IMG/VR virus record: IMGVR_UViG_3300036846_000488
Coordinates: 17,257 to 81,256 of that record
Length of the DNA: 64,000 nt
Source: a virus
Direction: 5' to 3' (one strand)
Shown piece by piece: positions 4,017-48,826 of this stretch; the stretch's first letter is position 1; each line of letters opens with the position of its first letter. Below the pieces are notes generated by a model, which had not been told where the DNA came from, made no database searches, and worked only from the letters and a program-made list of their open reading frames with translations. The translations under genes and the position numbers were made by a program.

Positions 4017-4346
4017 TTAGACCTTAAAGTAGATGTCGCCGTTGGACCCGCCAGTGGGAGCTGCTGAACCAGAGGTGATCGCCGGCACCGGAGGTGGGAA
4101 CGACACCCAGGCGGACGCGCTGCGGTACCAGAACGAATCAGTGTCGGTGGTGAAGGCGAACATCCCCTCCTGGACTCCCGCTGCAGAGGTCTTGGCATCA
4201 CGGTCAGCCGTCGAGGCGTAGACGCCCACCAGCCGCTTCTCGATGGCCTTGGCGATGGCCAGCAGGTCGAAAGCGAGGTTAGGATCCTCGTTCGCGTCCG
4301 GCACTACACCGTTGATCTGGCCGCCCGGGGTATTCACGTAACCCAT
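4017..4346 (-). CDS. Minor tail / fibre connector protein
   Basis: YASTADRDA...EGM.A.T.DT...W motif and terminal SGSAAPTGGSNGDIYFKV. Confidence 0.75.
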   Translation of the reverse strand: MGYVNTPGGQINGVVPDANEDPNLAFDLLAIAKAIEKRLVGVYASTADRDAKTSAAGVQEGMFAFTTDTDSFWYRSASAWVSFPPPVPAITSGSAAPTGGSNGDIYFKV

Positions 4347-29270: not shown

Positions 29271-29299
29271 TTGTGCGCATGTGGTGTATGGGCTATACT
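29271..29299 (+). promoter_or_regulatory. Sigma-A promoter P1
   Basis: TTGTGC-N17-TATACT. Confidence 0.8.
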
Positions 29300-29305
29300 G
29301 GAGTC

Positions 29306-29400
29306 ATCCAGTTAACTGGATCGGAGTCACCTGGTTAAGTCTCCTGCTGAGGAGCACCAGCACTCCCGAACAGGCCGGACCCTCTGGGGTCTGGCCCTTG
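29306..29400 (+). ncRNA. Candidate small RNA 1 (two hairpins + terminator)
   Basis: ATCCAG-TTAA-CTGGAT; GGAGT/ACTCC + CTGGT/ACCAG + CTCCT/AGGAG; GGCCGGACCC/GGGTCTGGCC. Confidence 0.6.
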
Positions 29401-29426
29401 TGCGTTTGTAGTGTTTTTGATATACT
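29398..29426 (+). promoter_or_regulatory. Sigma-A promoter P2
   Basis: TTGTGC-N17-TATACT, hexamers identical to P1. Confidence 0.82.
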
Positions 29427-29431
29427 GGACA

Positions 29432-29548
29432 CAGTGCTTCAGAGCCCCACGCCCTGAGCACGACCCGATCCTTCGGCCCCATGCGGGGGGATCGGGGGTA
29501 GGCCCGGTGTCGGTGAGTATTCGTACTCTTCGACACTGGGCCTTTTTT
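29432..29548 (+). ncRNA. Candidate small RNA 2 (twin CCCAY-loop hairpins + terminator)
   Basis: Hairpins 29434-29461 and 29464-29496, long terminator stem 29500-29543 with T6; G-U pairs favour the plus strand. Confidence 0.68.
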
Positions 29549-29578
29549 CATGTCCGGATACCCATGAAAGGACAACAG

Positions 29579-30144: not shown

Positions 30145-30461
30145 AGGAACCACCTTGGCTCACGGCCAAGGTCGATCAACGTCTGGCCGAGATCAGAGCC
30201 GGCGGGGCGTTAGAGCTCGCTCGTGATCAGCACCCGTTGATCATGACCTTCCTGGACGAGGGTGATCCCGAGATGTCCGAGGAAGAACGAGAGAAGTGGG
30301 AGCGGACCTGCGATAGCTGTGGTCGGTACTGCTCACCCGATGGAGACCTGGCCTTTTACACCGGTCATGCCCAACGAATTATCGATGGCCATCAGGTCAT
30401 CTTGGCCTATGGAGTCTGCAATGACTGCAGGCTCGCTGATTCGGAAAGAGGAACCGAGTAA
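30141..30461 (+). CDS. Hypothetical protein with two CxxC
   Basis: Start MKEPPW; CDSC...CNDC. Confidence 0.68.
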   Translation: MKEPPWLTAKVDQRLAEIRAGGALELARDQHPLIMTFLDEGDPEMSEEEREKWERTCDSCGRYCSPDGDLAFYTGHAQRIIDGHQVILAYGVCNDCRLADSERGTE

Positions 30462-30922
30462 TGAGAGGGAACACGATGAAGTACGACATCCACGAGATGA
30501 CCCCCGATGAGATCGCAGCATCCTGCGAGGACGCTGCCGACCTGCTCGAAGGTCACTGGACCTCGGGCAGCTGGTTCAGGTACGACGAGGACGACGAGGG
30601 CAGGGAGACTGGCATCTCCTACTGCATCGAGGGCGGTCTGGCCGCTGCGCTCGGTCTGGACAAGATCGAAGACGGTGATGACATCGCCCGCTTGACGCTG
30701 CTCAGCTGCCCGGTCTACGACGCGGTGCTGGAGACCCTGAACCACCAGGTCTTCGCTCAGCAGGTCGATGCCGGTCTCCGTCAACCGGATGCGGAGTACA
30801 CCCCGTCCTTCGGCGAGGGTGACCTGCCGAACTGGAACGACTCCGGTGGGCGCACTGAGCAGGAGGTGGTCGATCTGCTCCGGAAGACCGCGAAGCGGGT
30901 CCTCACGGAGGAGACGGCATGA
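30461..30922 (+). CDS. DUF6197-like protein, paralogue 1
   Basis: W..G...YC..GGL...WND..GRT..EV..L...A. Confidence 0.7.
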   Translation: MRGNTMKYDIHEMTPDEIAASCEDAADLLEGHWTSGSWFRYDEDDEGRETGISYCIEGGLAAALGLDKIEDGDDIARLTLLSCPVYDAVLETLNHQVFAQQVDAGLRQPDAEYTPSFGEGDLPNWNDSGGRTEQEVVDLLRKTAKRVLTEETA

Positions 30923-31269
30923 GTGAGGAGACAGCAGATGTCCTGGCCGCCGGTCGGGAGTACATCGAGCAGAACGGCTGGTGGCGTGGGCACCTGATCG
31001 GTCCCAACGGACAGCAGGCCTGCGCAGTCGGTGGGCTGATGAGAGGTCTGCATCTGGCGGCTACGAGCGTGGAGAAGGACCCCAGGGTGCTGAACGCTTG
31101 CTTCGCGTTGGCCAACGTGCTCGGTGCAGAGCGGGCCTACCCGCTCCAGACCAACATCGGCTACGTGGAGTACTGGAACGACCACTACGCCAAGGACAAG
31201 CAGGCGGTCCTGGACGCCTTCGCGAAGGCCGAGAAGATCGAGCGTGCTGGGTTCGATCCCGATGCCTGA
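30919..31269 (+). CDS. DUF6197-like protein, paralogue 2
   Basis: GW..G...C..GGL...WND....K..VL.AF.KA. Confidence 0.7.
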   Translation: MSEETADVLAAGREYIEQNGWWRGHLIGPNGQQACAVGGLMRGLHLAATSVEKDPRVLNACFALANVLGAERAYPLQTNIGYVEYWNDHYAKDKQAVLDAFAKAEKIERAGFDPDA

Positions 31270-32427: not shown

Positions 32428-32573
32428 GATGCCGCCACACCATGGAATCCCTGGCGATTCCAACGCATACCCACACCTGCTCTGGCAACCACGACGCCGG
32501 CTACCACTGGTGTCCTGGGTGTCAGCAGTGGTGGTGGAAGAAGGAAGAAACCAACCCGAAAGGAACCAAGTGA
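32424..32573 (+). CDS. Small Cys/His protein (49 aa)
   Basis: MRC...H.C...H...H.C..C; coupled at both ends. Confidence 0.55.
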   Translation: MRCRHTMESLAIPTHTHTCSGNHDAGYHWCPGCQQWWWKKEETNPKGTK

Positions 32574-32986
32574 GCACACTCACCGCACTCAAGCCGTTGA
32601 AGAGCTTGGGCGAGAAGATCCGCATCCTGCCAAGCCCGGACGTGCCGCCGATCGACACGCCGACCCATTCCGACACCGCCAGCGTGAAGGTGCTGGTCAA
32701 GGCCCGCCAGATCGTAGCCAGGGGCTGGATCCAGGGCGCGGCCCAGAACGACCGCGGCACCAAGTTCTGCGCTCAGCAGGCCATCAACGAGGCCACTCAC
32801 GAGCTGAGGTACGCGGAGAAATTCGGGTACCGCTGCCAGTCGATGATGATGCGTACGATCAGCGTCGAGACCGGCACGTCCTGGGGCACCATCCCGAACT
32901 GGAACGACGCACCGGGTCGGACCCAGCAGCAGGTTCTGACCATGTTCGACAAGACCATCGAGACCGCTCGGAAGGTAGGCGCATGA
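32570..32986 (+). CDS. DUF6197-like protein, paralogue 3
   Basis: GTG start with GAAAGGA RBS; GW.QG...FC...A...WND..GRT..QVL..FDK.I. Confidence 0.72.
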   Translation: MSTLTALKPLKSLGEKIRILPSPDVPPIDTPTHSDTASVKVLVKARQIVARGWIQGAAQNDRGTKFCAQQAINEATHELRYAEKFGYRCQSMMMRTISVETGTSWGTIPNWNDAPGRTQQQVLTMFDKTIETARKVGA

Positions 32987-33420: not shown

Positions 33421-33849
33421 GTGATCGAGTACTACGACCGCGATGGCCGACCTCTCGATCGGGAGTCAGCGTGGGCTCTGCTGGTGGACTATGACTACAA
33501 ACGGGTCGATCTCACCGAGGTCGGCCCGTACGTAGTCTCCACGGTCTGGTTGGGGTTGGACCATCGCTACATGGGCGAGGGTCCACCCCTGATCTTCGAG
33601 ACCATGGTCTTCACCAACTCGGCCTGGAATGCCGATCGGGCGGACGAGAACCGGGAACTGCTCCTGGAACTGGACTGCCAGCGGTACAGCACCCTCCAGC
33701 AGGCCCAGGAGGGCCATCGGGCGATGGTTCTGCTGGTAGAGGCCACATTGGACGAGGAGGTGCCGACCGAGGCCTCAGAGGGCGTTTTAGGCCCTCAGGA
33801 GCTGAAAAGTAGTGTTTTGAGTTGTATGTGGTGCCTAAATACCCTATAA
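33421..33849 (+). CDS. Conserved phage hypothetical protein
   Basis: VSTVWLGLDH...P..FETMVF...RY.T...A..GH. Confidence 0.75.
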   Translation: MIEYYDRDGRPLDRESAWALLVDYDYKRVDLTEVGPYVVSTVWLGLDHRYMGEGPPLIFETMVFTNSAWNADRADENRELLLELDCQRYSTLQQAQEGHRAMVLLVEATLDEEVPTEASEGVLGPQELKSSVLSCMWCLNTL

Positions 33850-33850
33850 T
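33822..33850 (+). promoter_or_regulatory. Sigma-A promoter P3
   Basis: TTGTAT-N17-TATAAT in an AT-rich patch. Confidence 0.82.
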
Positions 33851-33855
33851 TAAGG

Positions 33856-33940
33856 GGTCAGGGCGACTGCATACCCTGATATCGGTCCTCCCAGACCGAC
33901 ACGGAGAACCCCCGTCAGATACCTCTGGCGGGGGTTTTCG
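33856..33940 (+). ncRNA. Candidate small RNA 3 / attenuated leader
   Basis: TCAGGG/CCCTGA; TCGGTC-CTCCCA-GACCGA; terminator AACCCCCGTCAGA/TCTGGCGGGGGTT-TT. Confidence 0.6.
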
Positions 33941-33980
33941 TGTGTTTGAACCTCAACCAGAACGCCCGAAAGGGGTAGCT

Positions 33981-43473: not shown

Positions 43474-43727
43474 GCGATCAAGGCGATGTGATCTTCAGAG
43501 CTCCCATGGACAACAACACCTGGTTGGTCCTGGTGACCGGGATCACCGAGTCCCAGGGAGAGCTGACCATCACCAAGATCGGCGATGGCGAGGTGATTCT
43601 CACCGAGCGGGTCGGGCTGATGTACGGCGCGATCTTCGGGCCTGACATCGACGATGTTCGGACGTGGGAGCGCATGGCAGTCGAAGCCGTTGACAGCTAC
43701 AACGCGAAGAAGGAGGAGGTCACATGA
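43470..43727 (+). CDS. Hypothetical protein
   Basis: V.L.YGA.FGPD..DV..W. Confidence 0.7.
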   Translation: MSDQGDVIFRAPMDNNTWLVLVTGITESQGELTITKIGDGEVILTERVGLMYGAIFGPDIDDVRTWERMAVEAVDSYNAKKEEVT

Positions 43728-44092: not shown

Positions 44093-44217
44093 TGCACTGG
44101 ATCACCAGCATCCTGGCCGGCGGAGGTGCCGGCGTGATCACCGCCGCGTTCATGGAGGCGTACTACCAGCGCCGCGCGCAGGAAGAAGTCGGCCAGTACG
44201 ACCAGGAGACGCCATGA
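44089..44217 (+). CDS. Small membrane peptide (42 aa)
   Basis: Manual: MMHWITSILAGGGAGVITAAFMEAYYQRR...; ATGA overlaps at both ends. Confidence 0.58.
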   Translation: MMHWITSILAGGGAGVITAAFMEAYYQRRAQEEVGQYDQETP

Positions 44218-44906
44218 GTGAAGCCAACCCGTTCATGGTGATGATCCTGGAGCACAACAACTTCGTCTCCGAGGCCCAGGAGGTGGAAGCGCAGATCACA
44301 CCGCTCGACGATCAACTCAATTTCGGTGTCGGGGATGTGGCCATCCTGGCTTCGTCCAACGCTCCGCTGGAGGCGGACTTCACCGTGGTCAAGGGTCTCG
44401 ACCCGGCCAACTACGCGGAGACCTTCCCCGACTGGGAGGAGCGGATGACGTTCAACGCGCACGTCCTCTGCGAGATCTTCTCCCGTGCCGACACCGAGCT
44501 GAGCATCGGCTGGGTACACCGACTGAAGCTGCTGCCGATCAAGCAGTACCGGTACAAGGAGCTGAAGACCTGGCGGAAGAAGGGGTTCCCCGAAGACCCG
44601 CCGGAGTGGGTGATGAAGATCTTCCGGAACTACACCGACCAGCTCGCCGAGCGCGCGCCGGACAAGGTGCCGGTGGCTGTCACCTGCTCGGCCTGCGGCA
44701 AGCGCAATGTCGAACTGGTCGTCGTCCGGAGGCTGGAGTACCGGGGTCGGGCCGGCCTGATGAGACAAGGCGAGGACGAGCGTCATGTCACGCTCCATGA
44801 TCCGGAGACGACCTCAACGCACCAGGCCAAACTGGTCTGCTCGGACTGCCTGGTGGAGACCCGACTCGGCGACGACTCGTGGGTGCTGCCGAACGTCAGT
44901 AACTGA
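44214..44906 (+). CDS. Hypothetical protein with a C-terminal zinc ribbon
   Basis: Start MSEANPF; CSAC...CSDC. Confidence 0.72.
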   Translation: MSEANPFMVMILEHNNFVSEAQEVEAQITPLDDQLNFGVGDVAILASSNAPLEADFTVVKGLDPANYAETFPDWEERMTFNAHVLCEIFSRADTELSIGWVHRLKLLPIKQYRYKELKTWRKKGFPEDPPEWVMKIFRNYTDQLAERAPDKVPVAVTCSACGKRNVELVVVRRLEYRGRAGLMRQGEDERHVTLHDPETTSTHQAKLVCSDCLVETRLGDDSWVLPNVSN

Positions 44907-44915
44907 TTCCAAGTC

Positions 44916-44944
44916 TTCCTGTTGTGTCGTGTTTGTGATACAAT
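44916..44944 (+). promoter_or_regulatory. Sigma-A promoter P4 (extended -10)
   Basis: TTCCTG-N17-TACAAT with TGn extension. Confidence 0.72.
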
Positions 44945-44949
44945 AGGAG

Positions 44950-45068
44950 CGTGCCTTAGTAAGACCTGGGCACATGCAGGATCCACACCTCGACGAGGTG
45001 GGAGCGACGCTCTGCGAGATCCTGTTGAAGTACGGCCCTCACCGCTCAGATAGCGGTGGGGGCTTTTC
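44950..45068 (+). ncRNA. Candidate small RNA 4 / leader with GAC-triloop hairpins + terminator
   Basis: GTGCCT/GGGCAC; CAGGATC/GATCCTG enclosing two GAC hairpins; GGCCCTCACCGCT/AGCGGTGGGGGCT-TTT. Confidence 0.62.
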
Positions 45069-45108
45069 TCATGTCCGCACCTCGACGAGGTGGGAGCGAC
45101 GCTCTGCG
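44986..45108. repeat. Perfect 31-bp direct repeat (44986-45016, 45078-45108) bracketing a terminator
   Basis: CACCTCGACGAGGTGGGAGCGACGCTCTGCG twice. Confidence 0.95.
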
Positions 45109-45150
45109 CGACGTGTGAGATCTACAACAACCCTGAAGGGAAGTACGACA

Positions 45151-46158
45151 GTGAGTACTGTCACCGCTACACCCGCCGGCCCGTCCATCCGGACCCGCGT
45201 CGGCGAAGTCCTCAAGAACTGGGGCAAGAAGGTGCCGCCCATCGTCAAGAAGGCCGGTAACTGGTTCACGACCGCGCTCAAGAAGAGCGGCGGTTTCCTC
45301 AAGAAGGCCGGCAAGTGGGCCCTCGAAGCCAAGGCCACGCAGTGGGTCATGGACAAGGCCAAGCCCGCCTGGAACAAGGCATGGCCCATCATCAAGGGTC
45401 CGATCCTCTGGGTCGCGACGCCAGTGCTGGTCGTGCTGGCCCTGCCGAAGGTCGTGCTCATCTGCCTCGGCGCACTCCTGGTCGGGCTGATCTTCGCCAT
45501 GTGGCGTATCTCTAGGTCTCGGAAGAAGAACGCCAAGACCTACACCGATGCCGAGTGGGACGCGATCACCGATGTCATCGGTCACTCCAAGACCGCCTAC
45601 ACGTCCACGGTCAACGGCCAGTCCAAGACCGAGTTCGGCGAGATGAAGATCACCGGGAACGCCAAGGGTCGGATCAAGGTCTACTGGCGCGCTGTCCCGG
45701 ATGTGGTCACCACCACTCCGACATCTCGGTTCCGGACCACACACCACACCGAGAGCGAGGACCAGCTGCAGGAGCGGCTGAACACCGCACTCGGCGAGGC
45801 CGGAAACGTCAATGGGCTGACCCTCACCGGTGAGCCCACGGCGGGCGAGACCATCGCCTTGCGGTACAGGTTCCTCGACCAGCAGGCCAAGCTGGCCGGC
45901 CAGAACATGGACACTGACCTGCTGTCCGAGGTCATGGGCCGGATGAACTTGATCGAGGTCCGAACCGGGATGACCCAAGGGAAGATCAAAGCGGATGCCA
46001 AGGCTCAGCTGATCCATGGCGATCTCCGTCAGTGGCTCACCGAGACCTTCCCGAAGACGGACTGGAAGTGGGATCTGATGTACAAGGCGGCGGTCAACGA
46101 GAGCACTCGGCTCAAGAAGCTCGCCGAGATGCAGGAGGAGTTGGCTCCCGCCAGCTGA
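45151..46158 (+). CDS. Membrane protein (Lys/Trp amphipathic N-terminus, long hydrophobic hairpin)
   Basis: GTG start MSTVTAT with GAAGGG RBS. Confidence 0.78.
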   Translation: MSTVTATPAGPSIRTRVGEVLKNWGKKVPPIVKKAGNWFTTALKKSGGFLKKAGKWALEAKATQWVMDKAKPAWNKAWPIIKGPILWVATPVLVVLALPKVVLICLGALLVGLIFAMWRISRSRKKNAKTYTDAEWDAITDVIGHSKTAYTSTVNGQSKTEFGEMKITGNAKGRIKVYWRAVPDVVTTTPTSRFRTTHHTESEDQLQERLNTALGEAGNVNGLTLTGEPTAGETIALRYRFLDQQAKLAGQNMDTDLLSEVMGRMNLIEVRTGMTQGKIKADAKAQLIHGDLRQWLTETFPKTDWKWDLMYKAAVNESTRLKKLAEMQEELAPAS

Positions 46159-46166
46159 TCCTCACG

Positions 46167-46196
46167 AGGGGAGGGGCTCGGGCCCCTCCCCTTTTC
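46167..46196 (+). terminator. Intrinsic terminator
   Basis: AGGGGAGGGGC/GCCCCTCCCCT-TTT. Confidence 0.75.
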
Positions 46197-46222: not shown

Positions 46223-46486
46223 ATGGCTCAGAGACAAGCAGCACGAGAGATGAGGTTCGTCTGGGAAGCCGAGAACGGGGGAAGTTTCAACCACCTCGAC
46301 TTCCAGATGATGGACGACATCGCGAAAGCACTCGGCAGAGTGCGGGGCGTCCACATCGCCTTCGCGTTCTTCGATGTGTCCACCGGACGACGGATCCGTT
46401 CCTACGGTCCGTTCGGCCCAGCAAGCCCGGAGCTCCAGAAGCTCATCGACGTAGAACTCGCAGAGAACGAGGACGTACCCGCATGA
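46223..46486 (+). CDS. Hypothetical protein
   Basis: AGAAAGGAG RBS. Confidence 0.68.
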   Translation: MAQRQAAREMRFVWEAENGGSFNHLDFQMMDDIAKALGRVRGVHIAFAFFDVSTGRRIRSYGPFGPASPELQKLIDVELAENEDVPA

Positions 46487-46917: not shown

Positions 46918-47187
46918 ATGTCAGATCTCACCATCGTGAGGATGCGGTTGACGGCTGACCTGATCGCCAGGGTCAAGAAGCCGTTACCCGCGCCTCACCT
47001 AGTCACCATCGCCAACCGCTCCCTGACGTATCTGCACGTCGGGGCGGTCGAGGGCTTCGAGGATCGTCTCGAAGTCCTCTTCGACGATCAGTACCGCAAC
47101 GTCCACATGCACCACCACGACGCACGCTTCGAGACCTGTCGTCAGTGCGCCCGTCAAGCTCAGGACAACCTCGGAATCATCGAGTAG
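46918..47187 (+). CDS. Hypothetical protein with a His/Cys cluster
   Basis: H.HHH...C..C; GAAGGG RBS. Confidence 0.62.
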   Translation: MSDLTIVRMRLTADLIARVKKPLPAPHLVTIANRSLTYLHVGAVEGFEDRLEVLFDDQYRNVHMHHHDARFETCRQCARQAQDNLGIIE

Positions 47188-47200
47188 AGAACGGAATCGT

Positions 47201-48826
47201 ATGTCTCAAGACACCATGTGGAGTGACAAGGCAGCGAAGAAGGACGTGAAGAAGGCCAACGACTTCCTCAAGGAGATCGCCGGTGGCCGGATCACAGTGG
47301 AGAGCGCGTTCGAGTACCGCGACGACGGCGGAATCCGGATCGCTCTGCCGCAGAACCCAACCAAGATGAGCCTGAAGAAGGCAGCGAACATGCTGCTCTC
47401 TCAGGCTGAGGCCGAAGAGGCCATGCACGAGTTCACCAAGCCGTTCGACTGCCGTCCGATGGACGGTGCCTTCGCCTTCAACAAGGTGCTGAAGGATGTC
47501 TACGGTATGACCGCGATCGGCAAGGAGATCAGGTCGTTCTTCGGGGGTCAGCTGCCCGAGCTCAGGACGGTCAAGATCTCTCCGACTGAGGAGGTCCAGG
47601 TGCCGTTCGGGCTCCTGGAGTTCCCGCCTCTGGGGGCTCAGTTCTACCTCCAGGAGCGTGCCGACGAGGACTATGGCATGGCGTTCCAGGTGTACGTCAT
47701 GGCGAAGAAGAAGTACGAGGTGGAGATCCGCGGCCTGCTGATGCTGGTCGAGGGCTACATCAAGGAGCACTCGATCTACCGGAACAAGGCCCTGATCGGG
47801 GTCGGGCGGATCGTGAACGGTTCCTACAAGGAGCCGGAGTTCTTCAACCCCTACACCGTCGATCGGCACCGGGTGGTCTACTCCATCGAGGTCCAGGAGG
47901 CGTTGGAGGACGAGATCTGGGGTGTGATCGAGAACGCCGAGGTGCTACGCACCACGACCACGGTCAAGCACCGGATCGTCACGGACGACCCGGAGGACCT
48001 GGAGTTCCTGAACGCGCTCCGGGACGACGGCAAGCCCTATCCTCTCCAGCACGACGAGGACGGCGCGTACGTCGAGATCACCTACCCCGGCGAGGACATC
48101 GGCAACAAGGTCCTCCTGCACGGCGAGAACGGCACCGGCAAGACGCTGGCCGCCGCGGTCTCCGCGCAGATCTGCCTGGAGCACGACTGGTCGTTCATCC
48201 AGGCTCGGTGGGACGAGGATCTGAAGCACGTCATGCGCTTCGCTGAGCTCCTCGGCACGCCGGCAGTGGTGGTGATCGAGGATGTGGAGAAGCTGATCGT
48301 CAACAACCCGGCGAAGATGGACCAGCTCCTGGAGCAGTTCGACGGGATGCGGACCAAGGGGCGCGAGGTGCTTCTGCTGATGACCAGCAACCACGTCGGT
48401 GAGCTCCCGAAGGCCCTGACTCGGGCCGGACGGATCAACCGGATGATCTACGTCAGCGACCTCGACCGTGAGGGCGTGGAGCGTCTGATCAACGTCCTGA
48501 TCCCCGCGCACCAGCGCGAGGAGCTCGACTACGAGGCCCTGCACACCGCCTACGAGGGGTTCGCTCCCTCGTGGATCGTGCAGGCGCTGAAGGGTGTCAC
48601 CAAGCGGTCGGTGATCCGGACCGGGAAGCGCGGGGAGCCTCTGGCCACCCCGGACTTCGTGCGCTGCGCGAACGCGCTCCGTGCGGCCTGGAAGCTGCAC
48701 ACCGAGTCCGAGGACCGGCCCACCAAGCCGGCGCTGGAGACTCTGCTACGCGAGCTGTTCGCGTCAGAGCTCCAGAACCACACGGTGGACATCCACGACG
48801 ATGGCGACATCCTCGTCCGGGACTGA
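47201..48826 (+). CDS. AAA+ ATPase (classic AAA clade)
   Basis: VLLHGENGTGKT, VVVIEDVE, MTSN, ALTRAGR. Confidence 0.9.
   Translation: MSQDTMWSDKAAKKDVKKANDFLKEIAGGRITVESAFEYRDDGGIRIALPQNPTKMSLKKAANMLLSQAEAEEAMHEFTKPFDCRPMDGAFAFNKVLKDVYGMTAIGKEIRSFFGGQLPELRTVKISPTEEVQVPFGLLEFPPLGAQFYLQERADEDYGMAFQVYVMAKKKYEVEIRGLLMLVEGYIKEHSIYRNKALIGVGRIVNGSYKEPEFFNPYTVDRHRVVYSIEVQEALEDEIWGVIENAEVLRTTTTVKHRIVTDDPEDLEFLNALRDDGKPYPLQHDEDGAYVEITYPGEDIGNKVLLHGENGTGKTLAAAVSAQICLEHDWSFIQARWDEDLKHVMRFAELLGTPAVVVIEDVEKLIVNNPAKMDQLLEQFDGMRTKGREVLLLMTSNHVGELPKALTRAGRINRMIYVSDLDREGVERLINVLIPAHQREELDYEALHTAYEGFAPSWIVQALKGVTKRSVIRTGKRGEPLATPDFVRCANALRAAWKLHTESEDRPTKPALETLLRELFASELQNHTVDIHDDGDILVRD

Follow-up and report, generated by a model that had tools for sequence, protein, structure and literature searches.

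A 31-nt element stands in two identical copies, one on each side of a transcription terminator, ahead of the AAA-ATPase operon of an uncultured phage, and we read it as a leader-RNA recognition module for a phage-specific, probably dimeric factor that was recently copied to a position before the terminator, a reading whose chances of being right we put at about even. This reading is preferred because the repeat is unique, folds independently and sits in a conserved frame with an orthologous domain in one relative (L006), and also because of the matched apexes of its two hairpins, the rarity of such twins, the leader position and the short strings found in the flanks of the upstream copy. Within it, we infer function at the RNA level, the existence of the factor and any effect on termination or translation. 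The element is an uncatalogued one of a familiar kind (that is, a structured phage leader RNA module): no Rfam match reached the gathering score anywhere in the stretch of DNA analysed, and positions 44900–45200 returned chance-level E-values only.

The stretch analysed (64,000 nt; hereafter the window) comprises bases 17257–81256 of an 81,256-bp IMG/VR virus record rated complete, from a phage with a G+C content of ~63% whose products include DnaE, DnaB and a tape-measure protein of 1,981 aa. As no DNA-level match to isolated phages or plasmids was found, and even the closest isolates, phages of Gordonia and Mycobacterium, reach only ~30–35% amino-acid identity in the AAA ATPase and DnaE, the source is, judged by sequence comparison, a tailed actinophage of an unsampled, uncultured lineage from soil; no prophage relatives were found. 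The repeat locus lies within a + strand block (29–50 kb) of mostly small genes without known identity; three DUF6197 paralogues were also noted in the early + strand block (30461–30922, 30919–31269 and 32429–32986). The gene immediately upstream of the cassette (44205–44906) is without a family assignment and is kept in all relatives that have the cassette; the C-terminal part of its product contains cysteine pairs and gave weak zinc-ribbon-like structural leads only. Along the block, strong + strand promoters occur near 29271, 29398, 33822 and 44916, each followed by one or two hairpins, a terminator and a first gene (cassette extents 29271–29400, 29398–29560, 33822–33945 and 44916–45070), and units 2, 3 and 4 are represented by homologues in the L006, L007 and L005 phage genomes. 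The features of the repeat locus, in the last of these units, are collected in Table 1.

Table 1. Features of the repeat locus and of the operon that follows it (window coordinates)
Feature	Position	Strand	Basis
Extended -10 promoter element TGTGATACAAT	44934..44944 (-10 hexamer 44939-44944)	+	Unique in the window; nearly invariant in aligned relatives
Promoter-proximal hairpin h1 (GUGCC...GGCAC)	44951..44973	+	Folds; hairpin at equivalent place in every relative, sequence differs
Copy 1, predicted Y-shaped domain	44976..45025	+	Repeat search, folds, alignment gap in relatives
Intrinsic terminator, 13-bp stem, loop CAGAU, U-tract	45034..45069	+	Fold; covariation
CATGTCC box, immediately 3' of the U-tract; supplies the 5' strand of the closing helix in copy 2	45070..45076	+	CATGTC invariant in all relatives
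Copy 2, predicted Y-shaped domain, putative native leader copy	45070..45115	+	Folds; orthologous L006 domain with compensatory changes
Ribosome-binding site GAAGGGAAG and GTG start (45151)	45135..45153	+	Sequence; residue 1 aligns with the L006 homologue
First operon gene, basic repeat / membrane-like protein	45151..46158	+	ORF list, protein comparison
231-aa ORF, second in operon	start 46198, or shorter start near 46223	+	
89-aa ORF in operon	46918-47187	+	
AAA ATPase in operon	47201-48826	+	

The 31-mer occurs exactly twice, on the + strand at 44986–45016 and 45078–45108 (0 expected from 100 shuffles), with a spacing of 92 bp from start to start, and the likeness extends to 38 nt with 36/38 positions identical (44982–45019 vs 45074–45111). 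A repeat on either side of a terminator, as described in an earlier reading made from the sequence alone, is borne out by these exact copies and by the terminator-like hairpin of 13 pairs between them, which together with its T-run spans 45034–45064. A third copy is absent from the whole 81,256-bp phage record, and an exact 27-mer of the repeat has no match elsewhere in IMG/VR and none in 185,579 bacterial and archaeal genomes; with two copies in the phage and none dispersed in either collection, a host REP- or MITE-like mobile palindrome is rejected. A protein-coding explanation fares no better: an open frame that begins at the ATG at 44974 does run into the downstream gene, but we reject it because it crosses the terminator, because a spacing of 92 bp, not divisible by 3, puts the two copies into different frames and because relatives are without the block.

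Nine relatives were compared (eight phage contigs found via the AAA protein and L104 via a pattern scan from promoter to box), and a metagenome scan and two pattern scans contributed one cassette (L104) and one leader fragment (L015). All nine share the promoter, h1 (of varying sequence), the terminator and a CATGTC(C) box. The short RNA made from this promoter probably starts near 44950, and the RNA from promoter to terminator would measure ~70 nt in the relatives vs ~120 nt in the window phage. In the terminator stem, 7/13 pairs show compensatory changes across the nine relatives; the loop (45047–45051 in the window) keeps GAU in 8/9 phages, with GAA in L011, on a covarying stem, and a loop that keeps GAU is unusual for a plain intrinsic terminator. 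Homology between the relatives stops just 3′ of the box, where the downstream gene is swapped (L004, L005 and L009 vs the window and L006), and the box appears to mark a mosaic junction.

The same succession (that is, a GC-rich terminator hairpin and U-tract followed immediately by CATGTC(C/A)) recurs, always co-oriented with transcription, at 29549, 45070 and 46197 (+) and 27965 (−) of the window and at 4050 and 4974 of L004, 4102 and 5013 of L009, 2438 and 9454 of L010, and 4064 and 10741 of L011, with several further sites in G001 and G003. The next gene usually starts 10–35 nt after the box, and CATGTC is better conserved than the terminator stems. Its pairing partner is often a GGACA or GACAUG in the ribosome-binding or start-codon region, and such pairing near the start is seen in those leaders that lack twin hairpins and precede a different gene. 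The box might act as a processing site, in the control of translation, in the manner of a stoperator or as a linker for recombination.

In RNA folds, each copy of the repeat forms a hairpin A (CACCUC-GAC-GAGGUG; 6 bp, a GAC triloop and C-G closing) and, abutting it with 0 nt between, a hairpin B (GGAGC-GAC-GCUCU; 5 bp and again a GAC triloop), which occupy 44986–45000 and 45001–45013 in copy 1 and 45078–45092 and 45093–45105 in copy 2. A closing helix of 9 bp gathers the two into a Y-shaped domain, through pairing of 44976–44984 with 45016–45025 in copy 1 and of CAUGUCCGC (45070–45078) with GCG-c-GACGUG (45106–45115) in copy 2. Five CGACG palindromes had been counted from the letters; four strong hairpins do fold, but the fifth (GCGC-GAC-GTGT, taken for a third hairpin of copy 2) contains two G·T pairs and is better read as a closing-helix strand, since the minimum-energy fold makes it the 3′ strand of the 9-bp helix with the CATGTCCGC box. 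The four strong GAC hairpins are themselves two independent hairpins copied once and do not amount to four observations. A further small hairpin (AGUAC / GUACU; 45145–45162) holds the GTG start of the first operon gene in its loop, which opens with GAC.

The promoter-to-terminator RNA (123 nt) folds with z = −4.95, and the copy-1 domain alone, at z = −2.9, is the best-folding of the three domains compared; the isolated copy-2 and L006 domains (z = −0.7 and −1.7) do not fold better than shuffles. The Y domain folds independently at every length of the growing transcript. Abutting triloop hairpins are common in the phage (22 observed vs ~16 per shuffled genome), yet twins in which both members have the same closing pair and the same loop are rare (0.025 per shuffled genome). 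Other C-GAC-G hairpins number 8–15 short ones per genome, mostly coding, and one of 6 bp at 43644 lies inside a gene. The sole other identical-apex twin in four genomes is at G002:C1:14352-14383 (+), where ACTCC-TAGTG-GGAGT stands twice in direct tandem; an h1 apex GUGC-GAC-GCGC in L009 and L104 may be chance.

The downstream copy is, on comparative grounds, the native and inherited leader copy of the membrane-like-protein/AAA-ATPase operon; it is placed ~30 nt before the ribosome-binding site, downstream of both promoter and terminator. L006 is the only relative with a downstream gene homologous to 45151–46158, and at the equivalent position it carries an orthologous domain, CACCAC-GGC-GUGGUG followed after 2 nt by GGAGU-GGC-ACUCC, with a closing helix UGUCC/GGACA that uses the box. 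Compared with the window, hairpin A shows one double change (U-A to A-U) and hairpin B one double (C-G to U-A) and one single change (G·U to G-C), and both loops have changed from A to G together; the complete L006 genome contains hairpin A in one copy only. In L010, GAGGUC-GUC-GACCUC comes directly after the box and its apex GGUC-GUC-GACC repeats ~65 nt downstream (the 12-nt GGTCGTCGACCT occurs twice, in the leader hairpin at 2446–2460 and at ~2512–2524, near or inside the coding start). L015, a metagenome fragment that begins in the leader of an analogous gene, has GGCGUUG-CGA-CGACGCC and GGGUUG-CUA-CGACCC, each with a U·G wobble. The leaders of L004, L005, L009, L011 and L104 are short and without such hairpins, and that of L007 has a single unrelated hairpin.

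The sequence-only reading had taken the GAC loop for the conserved element and had looked to relatives for stem covariation around an invariant GAC. The stems are indeed kept by compensatory changes, but GGC, GUC and CNA loops occur, and with apexes of GAC/GAC in the window, GGC/GGC in L006, GUC/GUC in L010 and CGA/CUA in L015 the loop sequence itself is not what is conserved. From this comparison, the kept feature appears to be a pair of triloop hairpins; the two apexes are matched in any one phage and vary from one phage to the next. Comparable hairpins are found in only three or four relatives, none of them close, so the covariation counts are small.

The ~50-nt block between h1 and the terminator that carries copy 1 is found in the window only and is a gap in the alignment of all nine relatives, and scanning for cassettes with promoter and box as far apart as in the window yielded no true relative. 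Because 0/9 relatives have the upstream copy and the L006 genome has one copy, the two-sided arrangement is, as far as these genomes tell, a lineage-specific duplication. Relatives with a single copy and without loop conservation had been named in advance as the mark of a neutral recent duplication, and this is largely the picture obtained. A simple tandem duplication is rejected, as the copies have only 31–38 nt in common out of a 92-bp period and the terminator is present once. The flanks of the two copies do share short strings with their order kept (CATG..TCC on the left; AGATC, CCTG and AAGTACG on the right), and from these short matches copy 1 is probably an ectopic copy of box, module and leader. 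The ectopic copy would later have dropped two stretches of 9 nt, with the former 3′ strand of its closing helix among them, and would have gained a CAGGA that now pairs with GAUCCUG. The 31/31 identity of the core points to recency or gene conversion and not to selection on copy 1. GCATG-type strings on both sides of the terminator in L004, L006, L007 and L011 hint at an ancestral direct repeat, but their longest matches do not go beyond shuffles and we rejected this as an account of the arrangement.

Hairpin modules appear, from their sequences, to be exchanged or kept in concert between cassettes of this lineage. In the L006 phage, GGCGUAAGCAUGCC heads the RNAs of units 3 and 4, and the L007 phage has copies that are nearly identical; as a promoter-proximal apex it is located at ~81159 and 8279 of G001:C1 and at ~79879 and 6881 of G002:C1. 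The unit-3 loop CGACUGCAUA of the window (33862–33875) recurs in unit 3 of the L005 phage (G003:C1 ~61122), and its counterpart in the unit-4 h1 of L004 (~3990) is CGACUGCAUGU.

Under the preferred reading, the twin triloop hairpins and their closing helix would constitute a small Y-shaped RNA domain made from a conserved, strong, host-type promoter. In copy 2, this domain would belong to the 5′ leader of the membrane-like-protein/AAA-ATPase operon and would use the CATGTCC box in its closing helix, the box in relatives pairing instead with the ribosome-binding or start-codon region. Copy 1 would have arisen in the lineage of the window phage by ectopic duplication into the short promoter-proximal RNA, which it would lengthen from ~70 to ~120 nt, and would have acquired its own closing helix of different sequence. 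The module would serve as the RNA recognition site of a factor, specific to the phage and probably a dimer, by which operon expression is set, and the duplication would cause this factor to meet a site on the nascent RNA before the terminator as well, where it may load for read-through or be titrated.

A self-contained attenuator or riboswitch is not supported: when the terminator is forbidden, the Y domain is kept and the 5′ arm of the terminator is left almost unpaired (−35.7 vs −59.5 kcal/mol). The Y domain and the terminator stem are ~20 nt apart, and a duplex between the repeat core and the 3′ arm of the terminator (GGUGGG.GC) is rejected, being weak (−14.9 vs −27.2 kcal/mol) and based on a likeness that is absent in L006. 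As there is no competing fold, termination could be affected only through a factor or through direct action on the polymerase. No RNA-binding, antiterminator, N-like or Q-like protein was recognised among the neighbouring ORFs (Pfam, PHROGs and Atlas).

The strongest rival, which we regard as somewhat unlikely, is that the duplication is recent and neutral: the leader hairpins would be generic (stabilising the RNA or occupying the CATGTCC box) and the upstream copy young and irrelevant. The 0/9 count of upstream copies and the 31/31 identity are what a young copy would produce, small adjacent triloop hairpins are common in GC-rich DNA (~16 to 22 per genome), and hairpin modules common to several cassettes in relatives imply that such copying is frequent in the lineage. 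What this leaves unaccounted for is that copy 1 has its own 9-bp closing helix of different sequence in the best-folding of the three domains (z = −2.9), that the flanks have changed through several indels and substitutions and the 31-nt core shows 0 differences, and that apexes match within a phage in four lineages.

Two further rivals assign copy 1 a specific task. In the first, which had been proposed from the sequence as a built-in switch, the abundant terminated short RNA would act as a decoy that titrates a protein acting on the leader; the 31 nt are indeed present both in a promoter-proximal RNA expected to stop at a strong terminator and in the operon leader. The arrangement is nevertheless confined to one phage and is not a conserved design, the ancestral short RNA was without the sites and no binder was found among neighbouring ORFs, and we hold a decoy to be distinctly improbable. 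In the second, copy 1 would make the polymerase resist the terminator at 45034 (processive antitermination), either in a nut-like manner, by loading a factor, or in a put-like manner, by the RNA itself acting on the polymerase, and copy 2 would act on later terminators, for example that at ~46165–46196. The layout along the + strand block (promoter, hairpins, terminator, gene) calls for read-through control and suggests that this control is genome-wide; at all four sites a strong promoter precedes hairpins, terminator and genes with no other promoter noticed between, two abutting stem-loops lie between promoter and terminator, and a further terminator and box follow the first gene. Antitermination of this kind is nonetheless a doubtful account that we would not expect to hold, since the hairpins are far smaller than put RNA, the triloops are unlike boxB, the module stands only after the terminator in relatives and no N-like protein was found among the neighbouring ORFs.

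Known systems bear on these choices. The nutL and nutR sites of lambda (boxA–boxB) serve N antitermination, boxB being a single hairpin with a GNRA-like pentaloop and boxA standing before it. As in nut, the element would be a small phage-specific RNA hairpin signal, repeated within the phage, promoter-proximal and ahead of terminators; unlike nut, it consists of two GAC triloop hairpins in a three-way junction, has both copies in one transcription unit, has its presumed ancestral copy after the terminator and lacks a recognised N-like partner. A boxA-like motif is absent 5′ of the hairpins, the only resemblance (CGCUCU) lying inside the 3′ arm of hairpin B, and a position between promoter and first terminator is held by copy 1 only, with copy 2 and the L006 and L010 modules after the terminator. 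The putL and putR RNAs of HK022 are ~65–70 nt long with internal loops, act in cis on the polymerase independently of factors and each serve a different early operon. They share with the element adjacent stem-loops (at most ~1 nt apart; 0 nt in the window and 2 nt in L006) and two copies per genome downstream of a promoter, but size and structure set the element apart, at 28–31 nt (~50 nt with the closing helix) and with plain stems.

The late gate of lambda (pR′–6S RNA–tR′) combines a constitutive strong promoter, a short terminated RNA and an operon that needs read-through. A frame of promoter, short RNA, terminator and operon is kept here in all nine relatives; unlike in lambda, no Q-like protein or promoter-embedded Q-binding site was found, and the twin hairpins are outside the conserved frame. 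The RNA targets of ANTAR proteins consist of two tandem hairpins that are recognised as a pair; their hexaloops match, and the second hairpin overlaps the terminator. The element also has small hairpins in tandem whose loops match, but these are triloops, and ~20 nt lie between its domain and the terminator stem.

Placing the sites in DNA as palindromic repressor operators, or as cruciform or hairpin signals, is an alternative that the sequence-only reading had kept beside RNA-level sites. Hairpins A and B are perfect palindromes of 15 and 11 bp, the palindromes of the window, L006 and L010 keep perfect symmetry as far as the central base, the two copies lie 92 bp apart near a promoter, and symmetric changes would be expected also for a co-evolving dimeric DNA binder. 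Against this, within a phage the half-sites of A bear no relation to those of B, the sites at ~+37 and ~+129 (the native one past the terminator) are poorly placed for promoter control, the hairpins of L015 are strand-specific (U·G wobbles that become A·C mismatches on the other strand, and non-complementary loop ends), and the closing helices are non-palindromic and use the transcribed conserved box. The sites are transcribed, non-coding and located between a conserved promoter and a ribosome-binding site, so that RNA fits better than a DNA operator; we rate a function at the RNA level well above one in DNA, which we consider very improbable. Least likely of all, to the point that we would be surprised by it, is a recombination substrate, in which the 31-bp exact direct repeats bracketing the terminator would allow its deletion and yield terminator-less variants: in the one soil DNA run that contains the stretch (contigs only) k-mer depth is 13 for the repeat, 6.6 for the inter-repeat unitig and ~12.4 for the flanks, which weakly favours two copies with a local coverage dip over a mixture with a deletion form, and no terminator-less joint is reported in the contigs of that run.

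The terminator, box and ribosome-binding-site arrangement that frames copy 2 also recalls the SAS/ESAS of Cluster K mycobacteriophages, a short, conserved and oriented motif, specific to actinophages, just upstream of gene starts that often follows an inverted repeat (PMC3203893). The arms of ESAS are conserved in sequence (PMC3203893); unlike these, the hairpins here vary in sequence and end in a U-tract, and the 13-bp SAS consensus GGGATAGGAGCCC gave 2 matches with up to two mismatches (2.4 expected), none at gene starts. The promoter/terminator cassettes known as PeSLs in T4-type phages are found repeatedly at gene boundaries, where they mark module exchange (PMC2839356, PMC4122927). The box similarly recurs after terminators in all relatives and appears to lie at a mosaic junction, and by analogy the terminator and box frame may have a role in recombination, although phage group and sequence differ and PeSLs are without reported twin triloop hairpins.

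Taken at its broadest, the layout might reflect a genome-wide system in this lineage, with four promoter gates (with the CATGTCC box at two), a phage-specific RNA-binding regulator that reads matched triloop hairpin pairs and a site copied upstream of one gate, a proposal that is unlikely as a whole and that we advance tentatively. If true, the upstream copy would be a built-in decoy RNA or a new loading site that rewires read-through into the AAA-ATPase operon, and the system would count as a form of antitermination or titration not described before in phages of Actinobacteria. Transcription control in actinobacteriophages is poorly understood, and to our knowledge nothing equivalent to antitermination by N or Q of lambda or by put of HK022 has been defined in them. 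The layout in this lineage is very regular (promoter, hairpin or hairpins, terminator, conserved box and gene) and offers a natural experiment, with the module before the terminator in one phage and only after the terminator in its relatives. Should the module bind a factor, comparison of these phages would tell whether it acts on termination, translation or RNA stability; should it bind none, the locus would be a clean example of small structured leader modules copied between regulatory positions in mosaic phages.
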